The notes under the pieces were generated by a model. The model saw only the letters and a program-made list of their open reading frames with translations, did no database searches and was not told where the DNA came from. This document shows positions 45,252-63,700 of a stretch of 64,000 nt of DNA, in pieces; position 1 is the stretch's first letter; each line of letters starts with the position of its first letter. The translations under genes were made by a program, and so were the position numbers. Source of the stretch: an uncultured Gammaproteobacteria bacterium (GTDB taxonomy: Bacteria; Patescibacteriota; Patescibacteriia; 2-01-FULL-39-33). The DNA lies in assembly GCA_964573235.1 (NCBI GenBank), contig CAZNIV010000001.1, forward strand, positions 3,709 through 67,708, read 5' to 3'.

Positions 45252-47369
45252 TTACTTTTTTACTTCCGAGGCTTTACTCTTAATAATTGCATCGTTTACC
45301 TGTTTTATAAACTTATCCGACCAACTCTTTAATTCCGGATCTAAATTAATTGCCTCATTAGCTTCGCTTAAGGCATAATCAAATTGGCCAGTCATAGCCA
45401 TAATCATAGCCAATTGACGATGCGATTCGGCATTCTTAGTATCTAATTTAACCGCCGCTAATGATGTCTCAATAGCTTTATTCATATAAGTAGCTACCCG
45501 ATCTTTTGATCCAATACTATTTAAATACATACCATAATATAAATAAGCATAAGCTACTTCATAATACATTAAAGGGCGACCTGGGCTTAATGATAAAATA
45601 TGCTCTGCTGCCTCTGCGCTTTCTTTAAATCTTTCTGGTTTAAATTGACCATAGGTAGTATTAAAACGCAACCAAACTAAATAATTAGAAACATTATTTG
45701 AATTTTCAGCAATCATCTTATCTAAAGAAATTTCTACGCGATCTGCAGTTTTTGCCACAAAATCCTGACTAATATTACTAGAATTAGCTATTTGATCTAA
45801 TAAATTAGCATACTGACGATAATACTCTTGATTACCTGGAGTATTCTCACTAATAGCATCTTCTAAGTTTTGCATCCTTTGTTCTATGTTCGCACCTTGG
45901 TCACCGAGCGCCTTAATTACCAACTTATTAGCATCTAACGGAATTAAAACCACGGCATATAAAGCCGGCACAAATAATAAAGTAAAACCGACAAGGGTGA
46001 TCATCTTAAATTGTGTCCGACCCAAAACTTCACCCTTACTTTCTGGATTAAACAAACCAATTAAGGCAATCATTAGAAATAAGGGAATGTATGTAACTAG
46101 GGCCTCAAAAATAAACATATTCTGAACACAATACGCCATCATGGCTAAAGTGGCCCAAACCGGAATAAAATAGCGATTACTTAGTTGAGGATTTTTAATA
46201 AAATGACGCCACAAGAAAAATAACGGCACAAATAATAACGCCAAATACGACAATAAACCAAAAATACCACCAGTCAATAAGCGATCCAAAAACATATTAT
46301 GTGAACGATCGAACCACGGTTCTGTCATGGTCGGCGAAAAATACTTATCAAACGGCTGATAAAAATTTTCATACCCCCAACCTAAAATTGGACGCTCTTT
46401 AAATCCCTGCCAAGCCGCCTTCCAAACAATCATACGATTCAAACCAGTTCCCTCGCTAACAGAAATACTAGTAATACGAGTTAATAAGCTACTATTTTTA
46501 ACAAAATCTGAATTTTTGTTTACAAATACCCATACTCCAAAAAAGATACTAGCGCCATAAGTTAAGCCAATAAACCAAAGCCAAAAACGCCTAACTGTTA
46601 AATTATAACTACCAATATAAAACAACACTCTTTGATGTGGCCAAAAGTAATAAACTAAATATAATCCAAAAAGCGCAATCGATAAAGCCAAGCCAATCAT
46701 GCCCCCGCGGGTTAAACTATAAAAAACAATGTAACTAGAAGCTAATATGCTAATAAAATAATAAATTCTAGCCCAAATATTCTGCCTCTTAAACAACAAG
46801 AATAAGGCAAAAAAAGCAACAAAAATCATATAACCAGCCATATAGCCAGCGTTGCCCAGTGAGCCAGAAATACGAGTACTGGCATCAAAATGAAACCAAC
46901 CCCATTTAAATAATTGATCTAGACCAATAAAAAACTGAGCCAAACCTGCCACTAAAAAAATATCCAAAGCCAACAACCAATCTTTCATTTTACGCAAAAA
47001 ACCAGTAGTAATTAATAAGAAGATAAATAAATGAATTAACAATAAAATACCTTCGCTGCGCTCATTATTACTCCAAAAACTATGATAAAAGTAATCTCCT
47101 GCCAAAGAAGCAATGGTAATTAATACCAAATAAAGTGCCATTAATCCGCCAGACAAGTTCAAACGTAAACGATATTCCGGATTATTTAAAGCCAATAGTA
47201 AATAAGCTAACAACATCACTTCTATTGTGGTGTTAAATATGTAAGTTTTAGTAGTGATAAATGGAAAAAACAAATGCCCATCAACAAACAAGGGTACAAA
47301 CATAATAACGCCCAAACCAAGCCATAACAGCGATTTAGCGATAAGGTTTACAGTCGGATTATTCTTCAT
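45252..47369 (-). CDS. Wzy_C (O-antigen ligase/polymerase-like) polytopic membrane protein with C-terminal TPR domain
   Basis: ~12 TM helices; Wzy_C loop motifs (SRISGSLGNAGY, ILGWGYENF, HNMFLDRLLTGGIFG with a conserved His); C-terminal TPR-like helical repeats. Confidence 0.6.
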   Translation of the reverse strand: MKNNPTVNLIAKSLLWLGLGVIMFVPLFVDGHLFFPFITTKTYIFNTTIEVMLLAYLLLALNNPEYRLRLNLSGGLMALYLVLITIASLAGDYFYHSFWSNNERSEGILLLIHLFIFLLITTGFLRKMKDWLLALDIFLVAGLAQFFIGLDQLFKWGWFHFDASTRISGSLGNAGYMAGYMIFVAFFALFLLFKRQNIWARIYYFISILASSYIVFYSLTRGGMIGLALSIALFGLYLVYYFWPHQRVLFYIGSYNLTVRRFWLWFIGLTYGASIFFGVWVFVNKNSDFVKNSSLLTRITSISVSEGTGLNRMIVWKAAWQGFKERPILGWGYENFYQPFDKYFSPTMTEPWFDRSHNMFLDRLLTGGIFGLLSYLALLFVPLFFLWRHFIKNPQLSNRYFIPVWATLAMMAYCVQNMFIFEALVTYIPLFLMIALIGLFNPESKGEVLGRTQFKMITLVGFTLLFVPALYAVVLIPLDANKLVIKALGDQGANIEQRMQNLEDAISENTPGNQEYYRQYANLLDQIANSSNISQDFVAKTADRVEISLDKMIAENSNNVSNYLVWLRFNTTYGQFKPERFKESAEAAEHILSLSPGRPLMYYEVAYAYLYYGMYLNSIGSKDRVATYMNKAIETSLAAVKLDTKNAESHRQLAMIMAMTGQFDYALSEANEAINLDPELKSWSDKFIKQVNDAIIKSKASEVKK

Positions 47370-49029: not shown

Positions 49030-49069
49030 GAGGTAAATAAAAAGTAGCCACTTAATTAAAATGGCTACT
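49030..49069 (-). terminator. Intrinsic terminator downstream of the Cys-rich giant protein gene
   Basis: 8-bp stem AGTAGCCA/TGGCTACT with an 11-nt loop; on the minus strand it is followed by TTTTTATTTA. Confidence 0.65.
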
Positions 49070-49097
49070 TTATCTAAATGATTTTAACTATACAAGA

Positions 49098-52000
49098 TTA
49101 AAGTGATGGCGTTATTTTTAATTTTGTGGTTCTAGCTTCTAGGGTTGGCTTTAGTTGCACATAAAAATTATAATAGTTAGAAGTATAAACCTTATCATCT
49201 ATAGATATCTGGAATATACCATTGCAAGTCGTGGCACTACCATCGACAAAAACAAATTGATTTGAATCAATGGGCATTGAGAAGTTTTTAGAAAAAAATG
49301 GCTGCTGATCTTGTTTAATGGTTGGATTAGAATAACAAGTGAACTTATTATTATAATATGGCGCTAATTTGTCAAAAAATCTCTTTAATGTGAAATCAAC
49401 CGTATAAGATCCACTACCAATATCTGTGGCCGTCATTGAATCTACATCTAACATGTGACTTAATTCTAATGGAGCTGGGATAGTTTCACTCTCAATGTTT
49501 CCGTCAGTAGTAACTTTTTTAACGCTAACCTGGCAATTATCAGCAAGTAAATCAGACAATTTAACTCCATCAATGGTTATAACCTTAAACTGATAACCTT
49601 TTTTACCTCCAAGATCAACCCATTCTCCAAAATCATCTGGTCTATCGAGATTCATCTCTACGGGTAAATCATCCACAAAAAATGTCTGAGCAGAAACAGT
49701 TCTATCTTCTTCTTGGCTACCACATTTATAATGCGCCACTAAAGCATCTCCATTTTTAACATCACCTTTAACAAAAGCATAAATATCGAAAGGATTAGCT
49801 TCGTTACCAATCTTATTTGAGCTTATAGTACGGATACCATCACCTATTTTTAATTCCAAAGTGGCGGAGGAAATATGTATATAAAGGTTAGCAATAAAAT
49901 AGCTCTGGCAACCGTCTTGACGATAAGTAAATTGAAGTGTCTGATTTGCTTTTAGGTATATTCTCTTGTAAGGAATATTATAACCTAGATCAGTTGGAGG
50001 ATCAAACATATCTCCGCTGGTTAATTCTTTACCATCAACCAAATAAGAAAGACCTGAAATTGGGCGTGTATAAGGAAAATCTACGGCAATTTTTAAAGTG
50101 GTTTTATTAACAAAAGATTGAATGTCAAGCGTACTACTACAATAATAACTCCCGTTAGGAACTACTAACTTTTGAGTGTACTGCTCTTTATCTACAATAA
50201 AATCTTCTGTTACTAGCCTCTCACAGATACCATTATTATTCTTAAAATCTTTTGGACATATTACTGATTTACCGATAGTCACCCCTGTCGACTTGTCATT
50301 GAAACTTGTCAGATCAATACAAGTACCCTTTTTGGTAGCATCGTAAGTTGGTCCACCTGGTGAAAAAGATATAGTATAATCTTCTGGGAAATTAGAAGTT
50401 AATATAATCGAAGATAAGCCATAAAAACCAGTTGGAAATGATACGGTACTAGTGCCTTGTTTGTAATAATCAGTATAATATCCACTTTCATTTTTACAAC
50501 CGTAAGCATTATAGCCTTCGACTAGAGCCGTTTTATCGTAAGCCGTATAGGTAGTGCCGCTATTAGTTTGATCAGGGAATTTTGGAGTTCCAACACCCAA
50601 AGCATTGACAATACTACCAGAGAAAGAGTACCTCACCCCTCTAATTAAACCCTTTATAACCATCGGTTCACTACTAGTCGCTGAAAAATATATATCCTTT
50701 AAGCCATAGACTGGGTCATGAACATAAATAGTCTTTTTAGTCTTTGGATCGGTAGAAGTACTAACCCTATAAACAGAAACTAAATAACCAGTGATTGGCA
50801 AATTACCCGTATCAACACCTTGGGTATCAATAAAAATCTCTGCCCCACCCATAATATTGGTGACACTCTTTGGGGCGCTAGAAACAGAAGTTGTAATTGG
50901 AGTAATAGCCACTGATTTAGCGGAAGCTAGACTAGTACCGTAACCATTATTAACAGTCGCTGTGAAAGTATAAGCGACGCCCGGAAGAAAACCCGTAGGA
51001 AAAGTAACTGGGCTATAAGCACTGATGGCAATTAGTCTACCTTTATCGCTCTGGTCAATTGGAGTGGTTGGCTCGGCTATAACTGTATATTTAATTGGTG
51101 AAGCGCCACTCTTATTTTCGGGCATAAGAATATCAACCTGAACACCAGATGATGTGGCGAGAAAATAATTAGCAAAGGTTTTATAGCCATTTGCATAAGC
51201 GTGGGGTAAAACGGAACTTGGCGTAGCTGGTCCAACCGGGGGAATAACCTGAATTGATGAGGATTTAATACTGGTGCTTTGACCATTATAATTAGCCAAA
51301 GATACATTAAAGGTATAGTAAGCGCCTGGTTCGAATTTACTAGAAACAATAATGGGCGAGCCAACTTTAGAAGAGCCGCCACCAACAAGAGAAGAATTAG
51401 CAACACAGTCTGGACAATTCTTATAAGTACCCACCGACTGATACGCAACATAAGTGTTTGTCGTCTGGGTTTTGGCATTACGACAAACATCCACAGTAGA
51501 ATTGGTAGTACAACCAAGAATACTTCCTTTGTCTATAGGTTCAGTAAAGGTTAGTTTGATTTGGGGATTAGCAGTTTTATTTGGATATAGGTCACCACAA
51601 GTCCAAACATATGAAGGAGGTGTAATTCCAAGAGTAGCTTTTTCGCATTGAGTTGGATTTCTAACGGGCAATGAAACTGAAGCTAACAAATTAGTTGGGG
51701 GGTTGGGAGCAATCTTGGTATAGCACTTACCATCACCACCCGAAACACCAGGAGCACTACAAGCTGATGCTCCACAAGTTGGCGGATTATTCATACCATT
51801 AACACAAACACACGATGTACCCGATAATTTAGTACCAGAGGGACAAGTAGTTACGGAAGGAGGGGTACAAGTTGGCGGATTAGTGCCACCATTAGCGCAA
51901 ACGCAAGTATTATTGCTAGATAAAATAGTTTTTCCACTACAAACTGGCGTGGTTGACAAAGTACAAGTTGGTGGATTAGTCTTGCCATTAGCGCAAACAC

Positions 52001-52727
52001 AATTGGATCCTGAACGAATCGTACCAGAAGGACAAGTAGCTACTGGAGGGGTACAGGTTGGTGGATTAGTACCACCATTAGCGCAAACGCAAGTATTATT
52101 ACTAGACAGGATAGTTACACCACCACAAACTGGCGTAGTTGGCAAAGTGCAAGTTGGTGGATTGGTTTTACCATTAGCGCAAACACAGGCATTACCTGAC
52201 AAATAAGTTCCCGCAGCGCAAGCCATAGGGGGAGTACATGTAGGGTAATTCTTTCCACCATTAGAACAAACGCAACTATTAGATGCAGTAGAAAAGAAGC
52301 CAACAGAAGCACAAGGCGCTACTGGCAAGGTACAGGTTGGTGGGTTAGTTTTACCATTAGAACAAACGCAAAAACCATTAGATAAAAAAGTGCCGACAGC
52401 ACAAGTTTTTGGAGTGGAGCAAATCGGATAATCGTTAGCACTATTAATACAAACACATTGATTGTTAACAATTTTAGCATTGGCTGGGCAAATAATACCA
52501 TTACCTACCGACGGAACAATGCTACACGTTGGGTAATTAGTCGCTCCGTTTGAACAAGCACATGTACCATTAACCACTTTAGCTGTCGCTGGACAAACGA
52601 CCTGAGTTGAAACCGAACTAATAGCCGCAAAGGCCAATCCCCCAGTCACTGCCAAGGCTAGGGTTAAAACAATCGCTTTTGTACTAATTTTTGTTAAAAT
52701 CCCAACTGACATTTGCGTTTTTGTCAT
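49098..52727 (-). CDS. Giant (1209 aa) secreted/surface protein with ~12 tandem Cys-rich ~33-aa modules followed by a beta-rich region
   Basis: Signal/TM segment at the N-terminus; repeated C-x(7-9)-CxCxNGxTN(P/Y)PTC(T/S) modules at aa ~45-330; a strong intrinsic terminator follows downstream. Confidence 0.7.
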   Translation of the reverse strand: MTKTQMSVGILTKISTKAIVLTLALAVTGGLAFAAISSVSTQVVCPATAKVVNGTCACSNGATNYPTCSIVPSVGNGIICPANAKIVNNQCVCINSANDYPICSTPKTCAVGTFLSNGFCVCSNGKTNPPTCTLPVAPCASVGFFSTASNSCVCSNGGKNYPTCTPPMACAAGTYLSGNACVCANGKTNPPTCTLPTTPVCGGVTILSSNNTCVCANGGTNPPTCTPPVATCPSGTIRSGSNCVCANGKTNPPTCTLSTTPVCSGKTILSSNNTCVCANGGTNPPTCTPPSVTTCPSGTKLSGTSCVCVNGMNNPPTCGASACSAPGVSGGDGKCYTKIAPNPPTNLLASVSLPVRNPTQCEKATLGITPPSYVWTCGDLYPNKTANPQIKLTFTEPIDKGSILGCTTNSTVDVCRNAKTQTTNTYVAYQSVGTYKNCPDCVANSSLVGGGSSKVGSPIIVSSKFEPGAYYTFNVSLANYNGQSTSIKSSSIQVIPPVGPATPSSVLPHAYANGYKTFANYFLATSSGVQVDILMPENKSGASPIKYTVIAEPTTPIDQSDKGRLIAISAYSPVTFPTGFLPGVAYTFTATVNNGYGTSLASAKSVAITPITTSVSSAPKSVTNIMGGAEIFIDTQGVDTGNLPITGYLVSVYRVSTSTDPKTKKTIYVHDPVYGLKDIYFSATSSEPMVIKGLIRGVRYSFSGSIVNALGVGTPKFPDQTNSGTTYTAYDKTALVEGYNAYGCKNESGYYTDYYKQGTSTVSFPTGFYGLSSIILTSNFPEDYTISFSPGGPTYDATKKGTCIDLTSFNDKSTGVTIGKSVICPKDFKNNNGICERLVTEDFIVDKEQYTQKLVVPNGSYYCSSTLDIQSFVNKTTLKIAVDFPYTRPISGLSYLVDGKELTSGDMFDPPTDLGYNIPYKRIYLKANQTLQFTYRQDGCQSYFIANLYIHISSATLELKIGDGIRTISSNKIGNEANPFDIYAFVKGDVKNGDALVAHYKCGSQEEDRTVSAQTFFVDDLPVEMNLDRPDDFGEWVDLGGKKGYQFKVITIDGVKLSDLLADNCQVSVKKVTTDGNIESETIPAPLELSHMLDVDSMTATDIGSGSYTVDFTLKRFFDKLAPYYNNKFTCYSNPTIKQDQQPFFSKNFSMPIDSNQFVFVDGSATTCNGIFQISIDDKVYTSNYYNFYVQLKPTLEARTTKLKITPSL
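51740..52600 (-). repeat. Tandem coding DNA repeats (~99 nt unit in a ~190-200-nt higher-order repeat, ~85-90% identical) inside the Cys-rich giant protein gene
   Basis: For example 51841..52000 versus 52031..52190: ggacaagtag...gttggtggattagt...ccattagcgcaaac... recurs. This also produces the repetitive antisense ORF at 51883..52206. Confidence 0.8.
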
Positions 52728-52766: not shown

Positions 52767-53867
52767 TTAAACCCATTCCTTAATCACCTTCTCAACATCA
52801 CCAGAATCTACGGTTACCACTCCAGTACTACTTAAATCTTTTTCTATTCTCTCACGGATTTCTATTAGCTTTATTTTTTCTTTTTCTGACTTACATGCCA
52901 ATATTTCCTGATCTTTTTGTTGAATTTTTTTCCACAAATCTTTAACCTCCAAATGGGCTGAGGCTGCCACCTGATAAAGAACACTAGGAAGTGCTGGGTG
53001 TAAATGCGCCACCTTAACCATAGCTGCCGCCTCGTCTAAAGCATCCAAAGCCTTATCTGGTAGCTTTCTATTCTTAATCATTTTTTCGGTTAATTTAACG
53101 GCCATTTCTAGAGCCGAATCGGTAAACTCAACCTTATGATATTCTCTATATTTATTCTTAACCCCCTTAAGAATTGTCATGGTTTCTTTGATTGTTGGCT
53201 CTCTTACTTCAATTAATTGAAAACGGCGCTCTAACCCAAGATCGGTTTTAAAATATTTTTCATATTCTTCAAAGGTAGTAGCACCAATCATTTGTAAGTC
53301 ACCACGCGCTAAGGCCGGCTTTAAAATATCAGATAAATTAATCGATCCCTCTGATCCCTGTGATTGAATTAAAGAATGTACCTCATCCACAAATAAAATA
53401 ATTGATCGATTAGAGTTGACTATCTCTTGAACAATCTTTTTAGCTCTCTGTTCAAATTCACCACGATACTTAGTGCCCGACATTAAAGTAGCCACATCTA
53501 AGGCCAAGACTCGCTTACCCAATAATGCCTCAGGCACATCGCCACGAGCAATACGCTGAGCAAAGCCTTCCACGATAGCGGTTTTACCCACACCAGGGGC
53601 ACCAATTAAAATAGCGTTATTTTTTTCTCGGCGCGATAAAATCTGAGTCAATTTACGAACTTCTTCTTCTCGTCCGATAACCGGATCTATTCGGCCTTTT
53701 TCAGCAAGGTCTGTAAAATTACTAGAATACTGATCAAGAAATGGCGAGCGAGAACCATGGTAATTAGCAGGCATTGCCATAATGCCACCACTATTGCGTT
53801 TTACTAAAAAATATATTACCGCCGCCGCCACTACAATTAAAGCGAATAGATACTGTGAAGTAAACAT
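52767..53867 (-). CDS. Membrane-anchored AAA+ ATPase consisting of a ClpA/ClpB first nucleotide-binding domain (D1) only
   Basis: N-terminal TM helix; ILIGAPGVGKTAIVE Walker A; Walker B FVDEVH; alignment to ClpB D1 plus the start of the coiled coil, then the protein ends. No D2 is present. Confidence 0.7.
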   Translation of the reverse strand: MFTSQYLFALIVVAAAVIYFLVKRNSGGIMAMPANYHGSRSPFLDQYSSNFTDLAEKGRIDPVIGREEEVRKLTQILSRREKNNAILIGAPGVGKTAIVEGFAQRIARGDVPEALLGKRVLALDVATLMSGTKYRGEFEQRAKKIVQEIVNSNRSIILFVDEVHSLIQSQGSEGSINLSDILKPALARGDLQMIGATTFEEYEKYFKTDLGLERRFQLIEVREPTIKETMTILKGVKNKYREYHKVEFTDSALEMAVKLTEKMIKNRKLPDKALDALDEAAAMVKVAHLHPALPSVLYQVAASAHLEVKDLWKKIQQKDQEILACKSEKEKIKLIEIRERIEKDLSSTGVVTVDSGDVEKVIKEWV

Positions 53868-53927
53868 AAAAAATAAATTTAAATTTAACCTTATTATACT
53901 ATTTTTGATTAATTATGACAAATTTAA

Positions 53928-53964
53928 TAAGGCTCTTACTATTTAGTTAGAGCCTTATTTTTAT
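53928..53964. terminator. Stable hairpin between the 1213-aa gene and the AAA+ gene (possible attenuator/terminator)
   Basis: 9-bp perfect stem TAAGGCTCT/AGAGCCTTA with a 12-nt loop. A T5 run follows on the + strand; the minus-strand side is only moderately U-rich. Confidence 0.4.
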
Positions 53965-53980: not shown

Positions 53981-56900
53981 TTACTCCTTAGCATAATCCC
54001 CTTCAAACGAATTTTGAACCGTAATTATTTTAGTGGCATATTTTGTACCAAAAAGGGCTTTAGCCTCGTTGGCGTCAACTAATTTTAATTTTCCCATAGA
54101 AACAACTTTATACATTCTTGGGCTATTACTAAATTTAATTAAATTAGCACCTGGCTTAGCTGTTACATTGTCAGCAATTTCAATATTATCAAATTCACTT
54201 TGAGAAATTACTTTTAACTTATTATTAGCAGTAAGTTTTGACCAAGAAGCCGATTCCCAAGTTCTAAAAGTTACCAAGTTAGGGTAAAGATGCTTTTTTA
54301 AATCAGCATCGATGTAATAAATAGCACTGCTATCGGTAGTCTTAATGTAATCACGAAAAACCGGGGTATAAACGGTAATACTACCATCGGCATTAATAAT
54401 AGATGAATCAATATCATCTACAACGCCTTGAGTGGTGGTGGCATTATCAATATTTTCTTGATCTTTTAGAGTAATTGTCTTACTTAATACCAAAGAAGCA
54501 ATACCACTAGTGGAATAATATTTTAAATAAATTGTATATTGACCATTAATTTGAGGTAAGGCGAAAGAAATCTTTGACTTATGCGGCAAAACGCTAACAT
54601 TAGTAAAATTACTATTTAACGAAATAGCATAGCCACTAACAGTTGCTGGATCACCATTCATGGTAATATCTAATACTGAAGAATTGGTTGAGGTGGCCCC
54701 ATTATTAACCAACAAAGATAATGGCACCCCGTAAAGACCAGTTGGGGTAACGGAAGCTGAGCCACCTCCACCACCTCCGCCTCCGCCGCCAGTATCACTA
54801 GTAATATTCATCAATCCACAATTCAAATGCATCGATAAAGAACCGGAAGTTACTGTTACACTCGCCGTCTTAGCTCCAGAAGATGAATAATCTTTATTTA
54901 TCGTAGCTACTGTTCCCGCTAAGCCGTCGGTACCTGTCCAAAAATAAGTAAAAATACCATTTCCTCCAGAAGCTTGAACTGACCAATTTACTCTAGTTCC
55001 CGTAATTGCAGAAGTGGTATTAGGACTACAAGAAGCAGTGACATTGGGAGTAATTACTGTGATACCAGGAATCTTATATCTAGAAATAGTTCCTTTAAGG
55101 AAATAATAAATATAAACATCACTTATATCAAAGCCACCGTTAATTGTGCCTTCGCCAATAACCTTAATAGAATAACTATTATTTCTTGGATCTATCGCAA
55201 ACACACCATTACTTGCCAATCCCCAAATTCTACCGTCTGGACCAACTTTCAAAGCACTATCGGGTGCACCCCTTAATACAGGGATATTATTCAAAAAAGT
55301 TATTTCATGAGTAGCTGGATCAAATTGGAATATTTTTGTATAAAAACCACCCATTTCAACAGCGGTTCCGTAAACCTTTCCATCTGGCGTAGTAACTAAA
55401 CTTTTAATTTCTGAAGTATTACTAAGTTCAGATGATGTATAGGATATGGCTTTAGCAATTGGATCCCAAATAAATATTTTAGCGGAAGTGTTTGGAGTAG
55501 CAGTAGACCCTTCACCACCCCTAATACTAGTGCCTCCGATAATCTTTCCATTCCAATTAGTTAGTGAAATCACCGCTTGATTAGAAATTATGTTTTCGTA
55601 AACAGTAATCTCCTTAGTGTCTGGGTTCCATACAGAAAAGGTCCCTCCCAGTTTACCATAACCACCAACAGCACCAATATATACTAAGCCATCATCACCA
55701 TAAACCATGCCTCTCGGCCTCCAAGCAATGGGAATATTTGTACCCTGATCAGACTTAAGGCCCGGCGCCGGATTTAATAAAGGCGAAGATAAATTTGTAT
55801 TTACCGCCTTACTTGTATCAAATATCAATAAACGCCCGCCGAAATAACTAGCCCCCAATAATGAAGATTCCCCGTAAAGTAGATATGAATATATTTGACC
55901 AAAATTAGAATTGCCAACTTCTATAATCTGTTTAGTATCGGGATCTACCTTGAAAAAAAACCCAGAAACATATGTGCCAGAATACAATTTTTTATCTTGC
56001 CCCACTATCAACCTCTGTAACATAACCTCTTTTGTAGGCCTTTCTTTTTCAAAACTAACTGAAATAACTTTATTCTCGACTGTACTATAATATCCAATCT
56101 CAGATTTTATATTGTCTATCCCCAAATATTTTCCATTATAAATTCTACCAGCAGAACTGGTTTTAAAATCTGCAAAAGCTATTTCAGTGGCTACACCATC
56201 TTTCAAGCTAAAATATTTTTTTGTTGCACTCCCATTAGTAAGTATTTCTATTTGAGCAGCCACCCCACCATCAGAGGTTATTCCTCCATCTTTAGAAGTC
56301 TGATAAACACGACCAAATTGTTCATTCACGGTTGCGGGATAATCAAGAATTGTTCTATAAGTACCATCAGCAATTTTATATGCCACTACTTTTTGTCTAG
56401 TTGAACCTACGCCAGCATAAACATATCCATCTTTTCCGGCCGCGATAAAATGAACATAACTCTCGGTCGGCTCAATTCTACCAATATCAGTAATTTTTGA
56501 AGTTACTGGATCGTAACTAAAAAGCTTGGCATTAGGATAACTGCCACCATACAATTTTCCATCGCTACCCCAAGCTAACCCATATATCCAGGTTGTCGTA
56601 GCTGTATCTACCGCTCCGAGATCATCAATCGTTTCTTTATTTGCATCTAAATTTGTATTTATTCTAAGTAAATGACCGGTTGGATATCCACCCAAATATA
56701 TATTATTATCTGGCCCGATTATCATTCCATTATCTCCCTGATCAGTAAAAGCTTCTGATTGAAAATGTTTTTCTATTTTACCGGTAATATTATTAACCCT
56801 AATAACCGATGTTTTATTATGCGCATAGCCTATACTAATATAGGTACTATCATTTAAAACGACGTAATTTAAAACCAGGCCATTACCTGTATATGTCGCA

Positions 56901-57622
56901 ATTTTTTCTACCGTGCCCTCTGCGGCGTCTGGTAAGCTACCATCTTCATTATTATAACAAATACCATTACTACTAATTACATCAATGGCACTATCACAAC
57001 ACTTAGGAGTACAACCCACACTACTACATTGAGTAATATAATATTCACCAGAATCATCGCCACAACAACCCGACTGACCAAGGCTAGTATATTCACCAAA
57101 GGCCATATTTTCTCCGCTCAAAACACCACCACCTTCTTTTCCACAAACAGCAGGCGAACTACAATAAGCACTTGACCAACGATCGCAATCCAGCCAAGTT
57201 CCACCGGTACCACCACCATACTGCCAACAGAAAGCCTTGTTATCATTTCCTCCAGGATTCAAATCAGAATACATTCCTAATTTATTGACATTATTCCCTG
57301 AAGCAAAACATTTTCCATTTTTATCTACGCAATCACTTGAATTAGAACAACAAGACTGAACCGTACCATTAGCCCACTCTACCCCCGGAATATAACTTAC
57401 AGCTATTGATGATTTTAAAAATGGGTTAGAGCTATTTGCCTCACACACGGACTGGGCATAGGCAGGATATCCTTTTATTACTTCGGATATTAACTGGCGA
57501 GGTGCTTGAAATTTAAAGAAAAGGCCACTGGCAATAATTAAAATACTAAAAAATAAAACGCCACTTAAAATAAATTTTCTACTTATCTTGTAAGTTATTT
57601 CTTTAAATTTTGAGTAAAGCAT
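53981..57622 (-). CDS. Giant (1213 aa) membrane-anchored surface protein: Cys-rich region, beta-propeller-like repeats, PKD-like domain, poly-Gly tract, C-terminal shared module
   Basis: N-terminal TM segment; multiple CC/CxC clusters; repeated YxxG/LYSG propeller-like motifs; GTRVNWSVQASGGNGIFTYFW (PKD-like); G11 tract; C-terminal SAIYYID...AKALFGTKYATKIITVQNSFE. Confidence 0.7.
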   Translation of the reverse strand: MLYSKFKEITYKISRKFILSGVLFFSILIIASGLFFKFQAPRQLISEVIKGYPAYAQSVCEANSSNPFLKSSIAVSYIPGVEWANGTVQSCCSNSSDCVDKNGKCFASGNNVNKLGMYSDLNPGGNDNKAFCWQYGGGTGGTWLDCDRWSSAYCSSPAVCGKEGGGVLSGENMAFGEYTSLGQSGCCGDDSGEYYITQCSSVGCTPKCCDSAIDVISSNGICYNNEDGSLPDAAEGTVEKIATYTGNGLVLNYVVLNDSTYISIGYAHNKTSVIRVNNITGKIEKHFQSEAFTDQGDNGMIIGPDNNIYLGGYPTGHLLRINTNLDANKETIDDLGAVDTATTTWIYGLAWGSDGKLYGGSYPNAKLFSYDPVTSKITDIGRIEPTESYVHFIAAGKDGYVYAGVGSTRQKVVAYKIADGTYRTILDYPATVNEQFGRVYQTSKDGGITSDGGVAAQIEILTNGSATKKYFSLKDGVATEIAFADFKTSSAGRIYNGKYLGIDNIKSEIGYYSTVENKVISVSFEKERPTKEVMLQRLIVGQDKKLYSGTYVSGFFFKVDPDTKQIIEVGNSNFGQIYSYLLYGESSLLGASYFGGRLLIFDTSKAVNTNLSSPLLNPAPGLKSDQGTNIPIAWRPRGMVYGDDGLVYIGAVGGYGKLGGTFSVWNPDTKEITVYENIISNQAVISLTNWNGKIIGGTSIRGGEGSTATPNTSAKIFIWDPIAKAISYTSSELSNTSEIKSLVTTPDGKVYGTAVEMGGFYTKIFQFDPATHEITFLNNIPVLRGAPDSALKVGPDGRIWGLASNGVFAIDPRNNSYSIKVIGEGTINGGFDISDVYIYYFLKGTISRYKIPGITVITPNVTASCSPNTTSAITGTRVNWSVQASGGNGIFTYFWTGTDGLAGTVATINKDYSSSGAKTASVTVTSGSLSMHLNCGLMNITSDTGGGGGGGGGGSASVTPTGLYGVPLSLLVNNGATSTNSSVLDITMNGDPATVSGYAISLNSNFTNVSVLPHKSKISFALPQINGQYTIYLKYYSTSGIASLVLSKTITLKDQENIDNATTTQGVVDDIDSSIINADGSITVYTPVFRDYIKTTDSSAIYYIDADLKKHLYPNLVTFRTWESASWSKLTANNKLKVISQSEFDNIEIADNVTAKPGANLIKFSNSPRMYKVVSMGKLKLVDANEAKALFGTKYATKIITVQNSFEGDYAKE
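54761..54790 (-). repeat. GC-rich (GGN)10-11 triplet tract encoding poly-Gly (G11) in the 1213-aa protein
   Basis: ccacctccaccacctccgcctccgccgcca on the + strand, inside an AT-rich gene. Confidence 0.8.
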
Positions 57623-58080: not shown

Positions 58081-58752
58081 ATGAAACTCAATCCTAAATC
58101 AAAATATTTGCAGATTGCTTTTAATAGCCCGATTGATGAAGTTAAGGCTATGCTTGATTTACTCCCCGCTTCCGATAAAATCATTATTGAAGCAGGAACG
58201 CCCTTTATTAAGCAATATGGTAATTTTGGCATAACCGCCATTAATACTTGGTGGCGAGAAAAATTAGGCAAAAAAGGCTACATTGTTGCCGATTTAAAAT
58301 GCATGGATAGAGGTTCAACCGAAGTGGCTACCGCCGCCCAAGCTGGCGCTTCTGCCGTTACCTGTTTAGGCTTGGCGCCAATTGAAACTATCAACGAATT
58401 TATCAAAAAATGCCAAGAGCTAAAAGTTGATTCCATGATCGACATGATGAATGTAGAATTTCCTTTTGAAATATTGCAAAAATTAACCAAATTACCAAAT
58501 ATTGTTGTTTTACATCGTGGCGTTGATGAAAACACCCATAACCGAGAAAAACAACTTCCCCACCACTTAATAAACCGCATTAAGGGCGCCTATGGTAAAG
58601 TTTTAATTTCTATTGCGGGTGGCGAAACAACTAAAGATATAACTAGAACTTTTTTTAATAATGCCGATATTGCTGTGGTGTGGCGACCTTTTTATGAAAC
58701 CCCAGAAAAAACTACGCTATTAGCCGAAGATTTTTTGAAGTTGCTAAAATAA
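58081..58752 (+). CDS. 3-hexulose-6-phosphate synthase / 3-keto-L-gulonate-6-P decarboxylase-like protein (OMPDC suprafamily), paralog 1
   Basis: LQIAFNSP (beta-1), IIEAGTPFIK, DLKCMD (DxKxxD), LHRGVDE and IAGG align with HPS/KGPDC (LQVAIDL, IIELGTPLIK, DMKTMD, HAGLDE, VAGG). The beta-1 Asp is Asn. Confidence 0.75.
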   Translation: MKLNPKSKYLQIAFNSPIDEVKAMLDLLPASDKIIIEAGTPFIKQYGNFGITAINTWWREKLGKKGYIVADLKCMDRGSTEVATAAQAGASAVTCLGLAPIETINEFIKKCQELKVDSMIDMMNVEFPFEILQKLTKLPNIVVLHRGVDENTHNREKQLPHHLINRIKGAYGKVLISIAGGETTKDITRTFFNNADIAVVWRPFYETPEKTTLLAEDFLKLLK

Positions 58753-58754
58753 TT

Positions 58755-59831
58755 ATGAATCTAGAAAAACAAAAAAAATCAAACGAGAAAAATTTTCAGC
58801 AAATGATTTCGTCGCTTTTTCCCTTCGTATTTGTTGCTGTGTTTATGGCTTTTAAATTTAATATCATACTTGGTTTTATTATTTTATTTTTTATTATTAT
58901 ACTAATCAAAGGCAAAAAGGCTTTTATTCCTGCCATCAAAGAAATTATCCGACAAGCAAATGAGGAGCAAAAAAGAGCCCAGACTAATTATCAAAATAAT
59001 AAAACAAGCTCAAAAAATATTCGCGGTACTTTTTCTATCGATTCCGAGATTGACGAAATAAACCCACCAACTACATCACTCAATAATCAAAATCCCGAAA
59101 CCAAAAGTGAATCAGAAACCCCCGGAATTTCGATAATCCCCTTTACTGCCTTGTCTTTCATGCCATCGGTCGCACCTAGGCTAGAAAAACGAAAAAGATA
59201 TTTGCAAATTGCCCTTAACGGCAAAATGAGCGAAGCAGAATCTATTGCCAGAAATTTGCCAACCTCTGATCGTATTATTGTAGAAGTAGGTACGCCACTT
59301 CTCAAGGCTCGCGGAATTAATGCTATTGAACGCCTTCGCGCCATTATTGGCGAAAATACTTACATTGTGGCCGATAATAAATGTGCTGACTTAGCCGATC
59401 GCGAAGTGGCTATGATGGCTAAAGCGGGCGCTAATGGCGCCACCTGCCTAGGTGTAGCCCCAATTGAAACCATTAACAGTTTTATCGCCGAATGCCAAAA
59501 GCAAAATATCGACGCTATGATTGACATGATGAACGTAGAAAATCCACTCATGGTTTTACAAAAGTTAAAAACCATGCCTAAGGTGGTAATTGTTCATCGA
59601 GGCGTTGATGAAAGCGAAATTTCTAAAGAAAAACAAATCCCCTACTACCAAATCAAACAAATCAAAGGCAATTATAATATTATGGTAGCGGTAGCCGGTG
59701 GCGATACTATCAAAGAAGCGCAAAGCGCTTTATTTAACGATGCCGACATTGTAATTACTTGGAAAGATTTTTATCAGTCTAATCAAAAAACGGCCCAGTT
59801 GGCTGAGTCGTTTTTGAGTGAAGTTAAATAA
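58755..59831 (+). CDS. HPS/KGPDC-like protein, paralog 2, with N-terminal TM anchor and low-complexity linker
   Basis: The C-terminal ~215 aa are collinear with paralog 1 (LQIALNGK, IVEVGTPLLK, DNKCAD, VHRGVDE, VAGG). The N-terminal 140 aa comprise a TM helix plus an N/S/T/E-rich linker. Confidence 0.7.
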   Translation: MNLEKQKKSNEKNFQQMISSLFPFVFVAVFMAFKFNIILGFIILFFIIILIKGKKAFIPAIKEIIRQANEEQKRAQTNYQNNKTSSKNIRGTFSIDSEIDEINPPTTSLNNQNPETKSESETPGISIIPFTALSFMPSVAPRLEKRKRYLQIALNGKMSEAESIARNLPTSDRIIVEVGTPLLKARGINAIERLRAIIGENTYIVADNKCADLADREVAMMAKAGANGATCLGVAPIETINSFIAECQKQNIDAMIDMMNVENPLMVLQKLKTMPKVVIVHRGVDESEISKEKQIPYYQIKQIKGNYNIMVAVAGGDTIKEAQSALFNDADIVITWKDFYQSNQKTAQLAESFLSEVK

Positions 59832-59834
59832 ATT

Positions 59835-60647
59835 TTATTTTCCCTTAATCGTTTGGGCAATCGCCTGAAAACCACTCATTATTTCAACTGGCAAAGCAAA
59901 TATAACCGTCTTCGATGGATCTGGGTTAATCTTTTCAATCGTCTGTAAAGTTCTCATAGATAAACCACCCGGAGTAGAACTAAGCGCCTTAGCCGCCTGC
60001 GCTAAGCGTTCAGAAGCCTGATACTCACCTTCGGCCCTAATAATAATGGCGCGTCTTTCTCTTTCGGCTTCGGCTTGTTTAGCCATAACGCGTTTCATAT
60101 CGGCTGGCAATTCAATATCTTGAATTTTAATATCGGTTACTAAAATACCCCAAGACTGAGTAGCTAAGCTAACAATTTTTTGCACTTCCTCGGCAATCTT
60201 TTCTCTTTCCGATAAAAGCGGATCTAACTCGATAGCGCCAATCACATCACGAAGCGCCGCTTGAGCGTATTGCGAAACGGCCAAAGTATAATTTTTAATA
60301 TTCAACATAGCATCTTCAGCGCTTTGCACCTGAAAATATACCACAGCATTAATACCCACTGGCACATTATCTTTAGTAATAACTTCTTGCTGTGGAATAT
60401 CGGTGGTAGTAATACGCAAATCTACTTTCATCATCTTTTGAAAACCAACCAGAATCCAAGTTAAACCGGGATTACGCGTGCCGGTATATTTACCTAAAGT
60501 TAATACCACTCCCCGTTCATATTGATTAATTACTCTTAAACCTGGGATAACCACAAACACCACCAAAAACGCAATCACGGCTAGAACAATTGCCGGAAGA
60601 AATGAGATTAATTCTAGTTCCATAAAATTATTTTTTATATTTGGCAA
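59835..60647 (-). CDS. SPFH/band-7 (stomatin/prohibitin-like) membrane protein
   Basis: N-terminal TM segment; an SPFH core (VDLRITTTDIPQQEVITKDNV...) and a C-terminal coiled coil. Confidence 0.85.
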   Translation of the reverse strand: MPNIKNNFMELELISFLPAIVLAVIAFLVVFVVIPGLRVINQYERGVVLTLGKYTGTRNPGLTWILVGFQKMMKVDLRITTTDIPQQEVITKDNVPVGINAVVYFQVQSAEDAMLNIKNYTLAVSQYAQAALRDVIGAIELDPLLSEREKIAEEVQKIVSLATQSWGILVTDIKIQDIELPADMKRVMAKQAEAERERRAIIIRAEGEYQASERLAQAAKALSSTPGGLSMRTLQTIEKINPDPSKTVIFALPVEIMSGFQAIAQTIKGK

Positions 60648-60790: not shown

Positions 60791-63700
60791 TTAATTCTTC
60801 AAAGTTACAGTAGCAGTAGATGGGTTACCGACAACTTTCAAACCAGTGATAACTTCAGTTTGAGTGCCGTTACCATTAGCATCATCACCATAGACAGCTT
60901 CGTCGATGGAGTAAGTGATGTCACCAATATTGCTATTAGCAGACAAAGTTACAGCATCAGTTGAGCTAGCTGCAGTAGCGTTCTTTACAGTTAAATATCT
61001 GTAAGAACCGCCCTGGATAGATGAACTAAAGTTGGTACCGAAATCAACAGAAGAAGAAGTGGTAGAAATATCAGTATTAAAGCTGGACTGACCATCGCCA
61101 GAAACAGCCAAACCGAAAGTAGCTACATTAGAACCACCGTCTTTGACGAATTTAACTCCAGTCAAAGTGATAGCTTTTGTACCAGTATTGGTGATCTTGA
61201 AGATACCCAAAGTGTTACCAGCAGCTTGAGACAATTGAGTAGCAGTTGTAGGAGAAACTGCATCAACAGTAACGATAGCTGGAGCAATGTAAGTATAACC
61301 AGTGCCAATAGCGGAACCTGCAACAGTAGAAGCAGCGTTACCAGAAGTTGCACCAACTGCAATAATATCAGCAGTAGAAGAAGCAATTCTGAAAGCGAAA
61401 TCATGGCCTAATTGAGCAATACCCTTAGCGCCGATATCAGCCTTTACGTATAAAGTGATAGCAGTAGCATCGGTAGTACCGATGGTAGAAGCTAACAAGT
61501 TATCAGTAGAAGTGAAGGTAACGGAACAAACGTTAGAAGAACAAGAATCCATCTGGTTAGCAGTCAAAATAGGCTGACTAGCAGAACCAACGTAAACTCT
61601 AATGTTTCTAATATCGTTCATAACCAAGGCAGTACCAGTAGCGGTTAACTTCAAAGTTCTTAACTTCAAAGCTTCGTTTCTAGCAGTCATGGTTAAGGCA
61701 AAGTAAGTACCATCATTTGTGCCAACAGTTTTAACCTGAGCATTAGATGGAGTAGCAGTAGAACCAGTAACTAAAGCGATGTTCAAACTACCAGAAGTAG
61801 TCAAAGCAATTGCCTGACCAGATCCAGCCTTTGTAGCATCAACAGTGTTGCCAGTATCCTGACCAACAGCAGAAACGCCGTATGCAGAGAAAGTATGTGT
61901 AGCGGTTGAAGTAGAACCAGTGATATCACCGATCAACTTAACTACTACATTAGTATTCTTAGCTACAACAATCGGAGTCTTGAAGTTATAAGTTGTAGAA
62001 GCGGCATTGTTTGAAGTGCTGTTAGAGGTTTCTACGGTTACGCCGTTGATTTGCATTCTCAAGTTAGAAACCTGAGTTGCTACACCAGCGCCACCCATTA
62101 AATCATTCATAACAATGGAAGAAACTTTTACAGCTTCACCAGAGTTATTAGCGTTTAATTCAATATTAGCCAACTCATGATCGTTCACATTAACAGTAGT
62201 GTGAGCAACTGGAGTAGATAATGTTGTTACTTTTAATACACCAATTTGAACATTGATAGTATTAGCAGTAATTGCAGAAACAGTAGGATCGATAATATCG
62301 TTGGTTAACAATCTCTTTACGCTAGTAACATCAAAAGTAGCAACAAAGCTATTTGAAGAAGTAGCAGTAGAAGCGACGTTAGCTTCTACAGTAACAACTG
62401 CAGTCTGACCAGCGGTCAAAGTGTAGTAGGACTGTAAAGTAACTTCATGATTACCAGCGGTTGGAGTTTCACTGTAGACAGAAGAACCATTTACTTTTAC
62501 ATAAACAGAACCAGTCAAACCAGTAACCTGATTCAAACCAAGGGAAATCTTTCTTAATTCCATGTTTTCACCTGAAGCTTTGACATCATATTTAGCCAAA
62601 ACTACATTAGAAGTACCTGGAGTAACAGCTGCATTTGGAGAATCAGAAGACTTAGCTAAGGTCATAGTACCCTTGCCAATAGTCACCTTATTCACGCCAG
62701 TACCCATTGGGAAACCGGAAGCAGTGTCGATCAAAGAAGCGCCAGTATCGTTGCCAGTAACTACGATATCATAATTGTTATAAACAACTAAGTCGATAGT
62801 TCTGTCAGTAGTACCAACTACTTTCAATCTGACAGTCAAATCCTTGTTCATACCCTTATCGATAGCGTAAGGAGTAGCCAAGTTAAAGGTAACATAATTA
62901 CCCTTTGGCTGAGCAGTTGCCAAAACAGCGCCAGTTGAATCAACTAATTCAACATCTTTATAGTCAGTATCAGCAGCATTACCATTGTTATACAAAGTAA
63001 CGCTAGATACTTTAACTTTTTCAGCAGAACCAGTTAAGATGTTAATCTTAGTGATGTCTTGAGCGCTAGTAGCATCAATGTTCATAGTAGCAGTAGCACC
63101 AACTACATACTTCATAGAAGCGGTTACTGTACCAACAGTGTTGTTAGAGTTGATCAAAGACATAGAATTGCCCCAAATTGGGAAAGAACCACCAATAGTT
63201 GCATTGGAAGTAATTGCTGCAACGGAAGCAATACCAAACTGGACAGTGCCAGAAATAGCAGCAGAACCAGTGTTGATTCTAACGGTCAAAGTTACAGTGC
63301 TATTAGCAGGAACTTTAACAGCGTCAGTGTTGCCAAACAATAATACAACTTCATTATCAGCATTGATAGAAGAAGCCATATTACCATGTCTAACACCAGC
63401 GTTATCAATAATATCAATGCCAGTAACGGTATTGGTATTAGAAACGAAACCAGCTTTCTTTAATGTCAAAGCAGTTACTGTGACATCAGCATTGCCAGCG
63501 GTTAAATTTACTTTCAATACTGGATTGAAAGCGGTACCGGAAGCGATGTTAGTAGAAGCTGGAGTAGCAGCAGCCAAAGCGACTGTTAAACCACCAACAA
63601 CTGGAGTAGTAGAACCACCTGCAGTAGCGGTAGCAACTGGGTTAGCAATTGCAGCTACTTCAGCGGTAATAGAAGCGCCAGTAGTGTAAGTCATAGTAGA

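Follow-up and report, generated by a model that had tools for sequence, protein, structure and literature searches.

The window analysed here is a 64-kb stretch of DNA from an uncultured bacterium. On its minus strand lies an intact open reading frame (ORF) of 366 amino acids (aa) with an ATG start. It encodes an ATPase of the AAA+ superfamily with an N-terminal transmembrane (TM) helix and a single AAA+ module, D1, the first of the two modules of ClpB and ClpC. After an unstructured gap of 39 nt follows a gene for a Cys-rich protein of 1209 aa, whose N-terminus is a divergent copy of a short module made of a basic, Thr-rich tail and a hydrophobic helix. We hold with high confidence that the ATPase family is intact and conserved, that it has the architecture described below and that it is paired with this module. 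The ATPase and its module-bearing partner or partners are probably a two-gene unit and a dedicated system. In full-text literature searches, no description of either the ATPase family or the module was found. The coordinates of all features are collected in Table 1.

A membrane-anchored ATPase with a single Clp-type module

The protein begins with a membrane anchor, YLFALIVVAAAVIYFLV (residues 6-22), which has a Kyte-Doolittle 19-residue mean of 2.27 and is followed by K23 and R24. A helix in this place is present in 140 of the 149 family sequences (354-391 aa) on which the motif and anchor counts are based. In these sequences, the stretch ahead of the helix carries a mean net charge of -0.5 and the 10 residues behind it carry +2.1, a distribution that points to an N-out, C-in orientation. 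The linker between anchor and D1 comprises about 20-30 residues, is variable in length and sequence across the family and, in the window ATPase, aligns with the linker between the N-domain and D1 of B. subtilis ClpC.

In the module itself, the Pfam models AAA (residues 86-198, 47.4 bits, cut-off 21.2) and AAA_lid_9 (residues 226-291, 77.4 bits, cut-off 22.8) are both matched, and sensor-1 (IGATT) is found at residues 194-198. The lid is followed by a helical hairpin in which W312, Q316, D319, E339 and E342 are invariant within the family, and the hairpin by the closing element of D1, VDSGDVEKVIKEW. The C-terminus aligns to '...VDDEQIAEVLGNW' at residue 491 of M. tuberculosis ClpC1; thus, the last residue is the Trp of the 'W-TGIPV' junction that leads into the second AAA+ module (D2). 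The same order of parts is seen in the AlphaFold2 (AF2) model (mean predicted local distance difference test score, pLDDT, 73): an N-terminal helix, a disordered linker, the AAA core, the lid, the helical hairpin and a final helix.

The kinship with ClpB and ClpC is close. Its alignment with residues 166-491 of ClpC1 runs from end to end and contains no large gaps; the protein therefore comprises a complete D1 plus a middle hairpin of ClpC length. Its best PDB matches are the D1 modules of ClpB and ClpC (E about 1e-84), to which it is 42-56% identical, and D1 of ClpC and ClpB are also the top Foldseek matches of the AF2 model. The NCBIfam models for ClpB, ClpA, ClpV, ClpK and ClpG match over the first AAA+ module only. 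For instance, the ClpB model (TIGR03346 / NF008118) is matched at positions 155-400 of 853 with 352 bits against a cut-off of 1232, the ClpV model at positions 163-453 of 852 with 331 bits (cut-off 885), and the ClpA model gives 333 bits (cut-off 993). By its motifs, lid and fold, the protein is a member of the AAA+ superfamily of the Clp/Hsp100 D1 type.

Several more specific identities were considered and rejected. The protein is not a ClpB, as it has one module where ClpB has two, lacks D2 and scores below the whole-protein cut-off; moreover, in place of the long two-wing middle coiled coil of ClpB (about 120 aa, binding DnaK) there is a single hairpin of about 55 aa. ClpC and ClpA are excluded by the lack of a Clp_N match, residues 1-42 being the TM helix and the linker, and by the absence of a D2 with its ClpP-docking loop. 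As to ClpV/TssH, the match is confined to D1, and no genes of a type VI secretion system occur in any neighbourhood of the ATPase. The architecture is that of Msp1, with the anchor at residues 6-22, one AAA+ module and no further domain; membership in the Msp1/ATAD1 sequence family was rejected, as pore loop 1 is the Clp-type K-Y-R-G and the best matches in sequence and fold are ClpB and ClpC. Finally, FtsH is excluded because Pfam finds no Peptidase_M41 domain and the protein ends after D1.

The sharpest changes that set the family apart from ClpB and ClpC lie in pore loop 2 of D1. In an outgroup of 66 ClpB/ClpC sequences, Gly-Ala is found in 100%, and it is replaced by Gln-Ser in 92-97% of the family, accompanied by D177N and N180D. 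These substitutions fit a specialised substrate channel.

The protein is far from isolated. More than 120 database clusters are 53-72% identical to it, at 89-100% query coverage and with lengths of 328-413 aa (all but two not above 396), and the named relatives (Magasanikbacteria, the Parcubacteria group and 'Patescibacteria group') are all Patescibacteria. A word-indexed database search with a profile of the C-terminal hairpin gave three fragments. With a family-specific DNA pattern, back-translated from the motif YHKVEFTDxA, metagenome loci were collected, and 35 of 35 encode the same short form with the same end position. Retention of the motifs in the 149 sequences is very high: Walker B is kept in 149, sensor-1 in 147, the pore-loop-1 sequence KYRGEFE in 146, the arginine-finger sequence ERRFQ in 139 and Walker A in 138.

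These numbers also decide whether the ORF could be the 5′ part of a full-length clpB or clpC that was disrupted by mutation or by a frameshift in the assembly. The sole point in favour of this reading is that the protein stops where D2 would start. Nevertheless, all complete family members end at the D1/D2 junction, and the 149 relatives share length, end point, motifs and anchor. In addition, tblastn with 12 D2 halves of full-length ClpB/ClpC found no D2-coding sequence in the window, an unrelated gene begins 39 nt further on, and the DNA of the gene is 99.97-100% identical in three independent assemblies (the NCBI metagenome-assembled genome, ENA and Logan). The pseudogene or frameshift reading is thus refuted, and its remaining probability is practically nil. 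About 350 kb of flanking sequence contains no other Clp paralogue. On one metagenome contig (L100, 331-1422), the ATPase gene is broken into two ORFs (172 and 201 aa), with the module gene still following; the break reflects a frameshift or pseudogene in that population, or else a fault of the assembly.

An initial annotation of this locus, made from the sequence alone, had described much of this correctly. Its N-terminal TM helix joined to a ClpA/ClpB/ClpC-type D1 is borne out by the hydropathy, by Pfam and by the D1-only model matches, as are the retained Walker, sensor and arginine residues (138-149 of 149 relatives) and the lack of an N-domain and D2, for which Pfam and, in the window, tblastn were negative. 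It had proposed searching for the AAA and AAA_lid_9 domains, both of which are found, and looking for the truncated, anchored form in related genomes, where it turned out to be common to the 149 relatives. By contrast, the statement that the protein runs into the start of the coiled coil and then stops does not hold, since the full hairpin and the closing D1 element are present in the ClpC1 alignment. The suggestion of a degenerate remnant has to be given up in view of the database clusters, the 35 uniform loci and the three matching assemblies.

The N-terminal module and its pairing with the ATPase

The module is about 36 residues long and consists of a basic tail with alternating Thr (TxTxTxSxTxTK) and a helix (LAVAT...AAGGLAF...P). 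An exhaustive profile search of 1.84 billion representatives yielded 97 matches; in 94 of them, the module forms the very start of a protein of 47-1204 aa (median 358). When positions are numbered from the first residue of the hydrophobic stretch, the tail has Thr at -12 (72%), -10 (72%), -8 (88%), -4 (80%) and -2 (90%), Ser or Thr at -6 (84%) and Lys at -1 (75%). The odd positions that separate the Thr are most often occupied by Lys, Gln, Val/Ile or Asn, and the tail as a whole, with a median length of 16 residues, carries +2.6 net charges on average. In the helix, the conserved positions are Ala at +3 (96%), Thr at +4 (88%), Ala at +10 (90%), Gly at +11 (65%) and +12 (85%), Ala at +14 (92%), Phe at +15 (80%) and Pro at +19 (86%). 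The topology is N-in, C-out.

The bodies behind the module are unrelated to one another, and those that can be named are of extracytoplasmic types: right-handed beta-helix/NosD, CARDB, a thermolysin-like (M4) peptidase with propeptide, and Cys-rich repeats. Among the module proteins P0121-P0218 and the loci L004, L089, L101, L114, L116 and L134, some short elements recur directly after the module, such as '(Q)KCGVNS(Y)S' in one subgroup and 'C.DSDGG(N/Y)N' in another, and module mini-proteins end in 'RGEDVQ(A/S)P'. Such recurrence suggests that the common signal is followed by a small number of ectodomain or peptide families.

No relevant Pfam or NCBIfam model for the module was found even at E = 10. 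The same threshold gave no match to the PEP-CTERM, LPXTG, GlyGly-CTERM, YSIRK or KxYKxGKxW models, and the module is N-terminal. Prepilin, lipoprotein, Tat and double-glycine leaders were ruled out on sequence; for instance, a Gly cleavage site with Glu at +5 is missing, as is the Cys of a lipobox. Some features would suit a cleavable Sec signal peptide, namely the basic n-region and the small residues at +12 and +14, which fit the -3/-1 rule. The strongly conserved hydrophobic run of 19 residues also fits a stable signal anchor.

Pairing was assessed with an independent profile built from 93 database N-termini, from which the window's own protein and its database homologue (P0129) were excluded. 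With this profile, 34 of 44 loci have a module gene no further than 3.3 kb from the ATPase. In most cases it directly follows the ATPase; the distance is at most 400 nt in 30 loci, and the nearest module gene is on the strand of the ATPase in 33 of the 34. In a Magasanikbacteria-type clade, it stands immediately upstream instead. Most of the module-negative loci have a degenerate Thr/Lys tail and helix in the same position. As a negative control (and outgroup), 80 loci of full-length ClpB/ClpC from other phyla (about 1.3 Mb) were used, which came from a contig scan with the family alignment and with the universal motifs as patterns, a scan dominated by such full-length proteins and hence uninformative on synteny in Patescibacteria; the module has no match in them. 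In the reverse direction, six module proteins were taken from a word-indexed database search with a short module profile, made without reference to the ATPase. Four of them directly follow a D1-only ATPase, one does not and one is ambiguous.

The wider gene order around the pair is not conserved. The ATPase adjoins AP endonuclease and trigger factor, TGT and UvrD, VanW and ClpP, Fur and Zip, or rRNA/tRNA enzymes, depending on the locus. Similarly, no conserved third gene (channel, peptidase, ClpP or D2-only protein) was found near the pair, whose neighbours vary by locus; ClpP is near the ATPase in one locus only (L006). In one clade, the ATPase and the canonical module gene, as far as the contigs extend to the latter, are separated by an additional gene (L093 from 5034, L099 from 1313 and L110 from 5447). 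The variant N-terminus of this additional gene, 'T.K(L/I)DTRL(A/G)VA..FL…', may represent a second, related class of signal.

In the window, the copy of the module in the 1209-aa protein keeps the basic Thr/Lys tail (MTKTQMSVGILTKISTK), the Thr at +4 and a helix ending in GGLAF, and it lacks most of the alternating Thr, the Ala at +3 and the Pro at +19. It is the sole match of the independent profile among the 208 ORFs of the window and sits in the expected position, that is, where 30 of the 44 loci carry a canonical module gene. A profile that included the window sequence itself gives it 35.6 bits. The closest homologue of the ATPase (P0001, 66% identical) has two canonical module genes in the same position, with 51.5 and 42.0 bits.

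Organisation of the locus and its surroundings

The genes of the ATPase and the 1209-aa protein appear to form a single transcription unit because a promoter-like site and a hairpin precede them, the gap between them is unstructured and a terminator-like element follows (Table 1). The -10 hexamer of the promoter-like site ends 25 nt before the ATPase start codon. The upstream hairpin is probably a boundary between transcription units; no T-run follows it, so that it can be taken only as a putative terminator. The 1209-aa protein continues after the module with about 12 Cys-rich repeats (C.C.NG.TNPPTC) and then beta-rich domains, and it has no Pfam or NCBIfam match. Within its gene, the Cys-rich units are also visible as internal DNA repeats of about 230 bp with about 82% identity (51774-52187).

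Table 1. Features of the ATPase locus in window coordinates; residue numbers are those of the encoded protein
Feature	Position	Strand	Basis or remark
Gene for the membrane-tethered, D1-only Clp-type AAA+ ATPase	52767-53867	-	ORF, Pfam, homologues; stop codon 52767-52769
N-terminal TM anchor, residues 6-22, N-out / C-in	53802-53852	-	Kyte-Doolittle, AF2 helix, family charge
Flexible Gly-rich linker from anchor to D1, residues 23-42	53742-53801	-	AF2 pLDDT < 50
AAA+ alpha/beta core of D1, residues ~43-222	53202-53741	-	Motif positions, family invariance, structural matches
Walker A GAPGVGKT, residues 89-96	53580-53603	-	
Pore loop 1 KYRGEFE, residues 133-139	53451-53471	-	
Walker B ILFVDEVH, residues 157-164	53376-53399	-	
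Family-specific pore loop 2 QSQGSEG	53346-53366	-	
Arginine fingers ERRFQ, residues 213-217	53217-53231	-	
Small (lid) domain of D1, residues 226-291	52995-53192	-	Pfam AAA_lid_9, E = 8.9e-22
Short helical hairpin of ClpC middle-domain length, residues ~293-347	52827-52991	-	AF2 helices, ClpC1 alignment
C-terminal element VDSGDVEKVIKEWV, residues 353-366, closing piece of D1	52770-52811	-	ClpC1 alignment
Promoter-like site TTGTCA-17-TATAAT	53893-53921	-	Consensus match only, 11/12 matches
Stable hairpin 3′ of the 1213-aa stop codon, ahead of the promoter-like site	53926-53959	-	-17.2 kcal/mol, z = -4.7, 0/200 shuffles as stable
1209-aa Cys-rich partner gene	49098-52727	-	Downstream of the ATPase
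Divergent copy of the N-terminal module, residues 1-37: MTKTQMSVGILTKISTK-AIVLTLALAVTGGLAFAAISS	52617-52727	-	Profile search
Intrinsic-terminator-like hairpin and T-run directly 3′ of the partner gene	49041-49071	-	13-bp stem, then TTATTT; -17.5 kcal/mol, z = -4.45
1213-aa gene upstream of the ATPase	53981-57622	-	Weak PKD match; no module

The gene upstream of the ATPase, for a protein of 1213 aa, was considered as a second partner and rejected, as it has no module match and seems to belong to a separate transcription unit; the hairpin and the promoter-like site lie between it and the ATPase. The 1213-aa protein has an N-terminal hydrophobic helix of its own (…ILIIASGLFF…). The initial annotation had correctly given the gap of 39 nt to the Cys-rich gene and the 1213-aa gene upstream, and had proposed that the ATPase may be a dedicated factor for the neighbouring giant surface proteins. 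This idea survives for the downstream gene, through the shared module, and fails for the upstream one. Likewise, what unites the partners is their N-terminus and not their size or Cys content, given that they range from 47 to 1204 aa and have unrelated bodies. The synteny with surface-protein genes that was to be looked for in related genomes is thus found with module-bearing partners, and not with giant genes as such.

The remainder of the window is of a different character. From 1 to 47400, nearly all ORFs are on the minus strand and the GC skew is -0.15 to -0.31, nearing zero beyond about 50 kb. The genes sampled in this part form a large envelope-glycan cluster with GT1, GT2 and GT4 glycosyltransferases, Bac_transf, NAD epimerase and methyltransferases, and it also contains an S8 subtilase (40881-42593) and a Wzy_C O-antigen-ligase-like protein with TPR (45252-47369). 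On the other side of the ATPase locus (58081-59831 on the plus and 59835-60647 on the minus strand), two tandem genes of the OMPdecase family are similar to hexulose-6-phosphate synthase (Fae/Hps model at about 168-170 bits, below cut-off) and are followed by a Band_7/SPFH gene. The same trio is near the ATPase in another locus (L127, after UvrD); thus, the neighbourhood is partly syntenic within the clade. Further on, a minus-strand ORF of 1058 aa (60791-63967) has neither a Pfam match nor a module. Scans of the window for tRNAs and Rfam families found nothing.

Possible roles of the pair

Clp/Hsp100 rings take in their substrate at the face that bears the N-terminus of D1, and Msp1 and FtsH, both anchored N-terminally, pull membrane proteins by their cytoplasmic tails. 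In the ATPase described here, the N-domain is replaced by a TM anchor in N-out, C-in orientation, and D2 is absent. The N-terminal tether would turn the entry face of the ring toward the membrane, and the motor would therefore pull a polypeptide out rather than push it in. On these grounds, we tentatively favour, at somewhat less than an even chance, the proposal that the ATPase is a functional single-ring unfoldase that pulls on the cytoplasmic tail of its partner at the membrane. Six subunits would assemble at the inner face of the membrane with the entrance of the pore toward the bilayer, and the ring would take the tail of the partner into its pore. AAA+ pore loops are known to hold an extended chain in a two-residue register and to advance it by two residues per step (PMC7018516). 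The 12-residue alternating-Thr tail next to the membrane would correspond to six such steps and match the register of the pore-loop staircase. ATP hydrolysis would then exert a pull on the module. What is pulled might be the partner in its entirety, a precursor that has stalled, or no more than the signal peptide that remains once cleavage has taken place behind G-x-A and before F, and the outcome might be the extraction or clearance of signal peptides or anchors, the removal of stalled precursors, or the turnover or release of surface proteins.

A number of points weigh against this proposal. Binding of the module by the ATPase is something that we infer. With the independent profile, the module copy in the window scores 13.5 bits only (E = 0.023 over 11,189 ORFs). 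AAA+ pores usually grip without sequence specificity, so that a conserved pore-bound sequence would be unusual, and isolated D1 modules of ClpB are poor hexamerisers. It is implausible that a disulfide-rich ectodomain of 1200 aa is pulled back through the membrane, and the real substrate may be only a cleaved signal peptide. The anchor helix of the ATPase is not conserved in sequence, unlike the module helix, which is highly conserved; therefore, some other membrane protein probably contacts the module helix.

The pairing itself also has exceptions that count on the same side. In two loci, tandem mini module genes (47 aa and 72-75 aa; L122 2817-3267 and L123 506-947) directly follow AP_endonuc_2, and no ATPase is present there; in the related L004 (10001-11836), the ATPase occupies their exact place. 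Going by gene order, the ATPase is lost or relocated in the former two while the module genes were kept. In another locus (L103), the ATPase is directly followed by a UvrD-like gene, and its relative L127 (11071-15127) has three genes between ATPase and UvrD, two of them with the module. These exceptions suggest that the partner region gains and loses genes, being variable by insertion and deletion between strains.

The evidence that points to trafficking can also be read in the opposite direction, with the ATPase as an export or targeting factor that reads the extended n-region of a special signal peptide and keeps the precursor unfolded or delivers it to SecYEG/YidC. A conserved N-terminal module on variable extracytoplasmic bodies does resemble a trafficking signal, the Gly and Ala at +12 and +14 would suit signal peptidase I with the Phe at +1, and the genes of ATPase and partner run in the same direction with little space between them. 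Parallels are SecA2, which serves accessory-Sec signal peptides, and the AAA+ export motors Bcs1 and PTEX-HSP101. Nevertheless, with an N-terminal anchor and a short linker, the exit face would be cytoplasmic and threading would run away from the membrane, if the direction is that of ClpB and ClpC, and no channel-forming or Sec-like gene is conserved beside the pair. We thus consider an export role unlikely. The export or assembly chaperone that the initial annotation had in mind is possible, although the geometry of the tether favours pulling out of the membrane.

Perhaps the module genes are not specific clients at all. The ATPase could be a general membrane-proximal disaggregase or quality-control unfoldase, which in reduced genomes would replace ClpB/ClpC in minimal form or assist FtsH, and which shares an operon with them for regulatory or historical reasons. 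All general threading motifs are retained, single-ring relatives of Hsp100 such as human Skd3/CLPB can be active disaggregases, the wider synteny is variable and some loci have no module gene. However, 34 canonical loci out of 44 with a mostly degenerate rest are far too regular for hitch-hiking in surroundings that change at nearly every locus, the module is very rare overall (97 matches in the census), and the substrate channel has family-specific changes, all of which makes this a quite improbable explanation. The module proteins might instead act on the ATPase, as membrane partners, adaptors or regulators whose ectodomains would sense or bind something outside the cell and whose module would link this to the motor, as MecA and ClpS do for ClpC and ClpA, and HflK/C for FtsH. 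In support of this, the minimal versions have little beyond the module (47-80 aa) and frequently stand beside a larger one in tandem, the module helix has a conserved small-residue face (A+3, A+10, G+11/12, A+14) as used in helix-helix packing, and the invariant residues of the middle hairpin could form a docking site. The ATPase helix, though, is unconserved in sequence, which argues against a specific helix-helix pair, and an unstructured basic tail next to the membrane looks like an initiation site and not like an adaptor fold; we regard such a role as very unlikely.

Pulling by a tethered ring, the proposal favoured here, can be placed among known systems. With ClpC and ClpB, the ATPase shares Walker A and B, pore loop 1 (G-T-KYRGEFE, as in ClpC), sensor-1, arginine fingers, the AAA_lid_9 lid, a hairpin of ClpC length and the pre-D1 linker. 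It differs from them in its TM helix in place of the N-domain, which tethers it to the membrane, in the lack of D2, hence of a ClpP-docking loop and of a second motor, and in the change of GAG to QSQ in pore loop 2. In general layout, it resembles FtsH to some extent and more closely Msp1/ATAD1, which also has an N-terminal anchor, a short linker, one AAA ring and no protease, with a presumably similar geometry. Msp1 pulls membrane proteins from the bilayer by two residues per step (PMC7018516; PMC9273213), and its pore loop 1 (K-X1-X2-G) has two aromatic residues (PMC7018516). Nevertheless, Msp1 belongs to the classical AAA clade and the ATPase to Clp/Hsp100, so that the analogy is functional and the homology extends only to the AAA+ fold. 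Besides, clients of Msp1 are tail-anchored and gripped at or near the C-terminus, whereas the handle would here be N-terminal and is encoded beside the ATPase.

FtsH, which is present in these genomes (L128), is likewise a membrane-anchored AAA+ ring with its entry face to the membrane that starts on cytoplasmic tails; however, it has two TM helices, a classical AAA domain and an M41 protease, and the ATPase has no protease domain. Skd3/human CLPB is a natural single-ring Hsp100 without a second AAA+ module, but it is a mitochondrial protein with a D2-type ring and ankyrin repeats, and it has no paired client signal. As for the module, special sorting signals (KxYKxGKxW/accessory Sec, YSIRK, ESPR, PEP-CTERM, GlyGly-CTERM and LPXTG) are similar in that a short conserved signal occurs on unrelated surface proteins and that, where there are only a few clients, the gene of a dedicated processing or transport protein is found close by. 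GlyGly-CTERM has a particular likeness in the Gly-Gly at the outer end of the membrane helix of the module. In contrast to these signals, the module combines an N-terminal, N-in position with an alternating-Thr tail, and the associated enzyme is an AAA+ ATPase and not a sortase, exosortase, rhomboid or SecA2.

The broadest interpretation is that the pair is a new sorting or extraction system of Patescibacteria, in which an N-terminal signal would mark a small and fast-changing group of surface and secreted proteins for a dedicated, membrane-tethered Clp motor, TxTxTxSxTxTK would serve as a purpose-built handle in the register of the pore loops, and pulling would control the release, turnover or clearance of host-facing proteins. 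This is possible but, on balance, rather doubtful.

Hsp100/Clp unfoldases are two-ring machines or single-ring machines of the D2 type. A conserved, natural, membrane-anchored form with D1 only is therefore a new architecture and a minimal model for threading by a single D1 ring. If the motor acts on its partners, it would be a bacterial counterpart of the eukaryotic extractase Msp1 from a different AAA+ lineage. In practical terms, the DNA pattern and the profile can be used to find the ATPase and its partners in metagenomes. Bacteria of the candidate phyla radiation (CPR) live in attachment to other cells with very small genomes, and annotation is lacking for most of their surface proteins. 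The pairing with an unannotated module would define a new recognition signal for part of the CPR surface proteome and, if the module is indeed such a signal, the ATPase and its partner would amount to a new sorting or extraction system.

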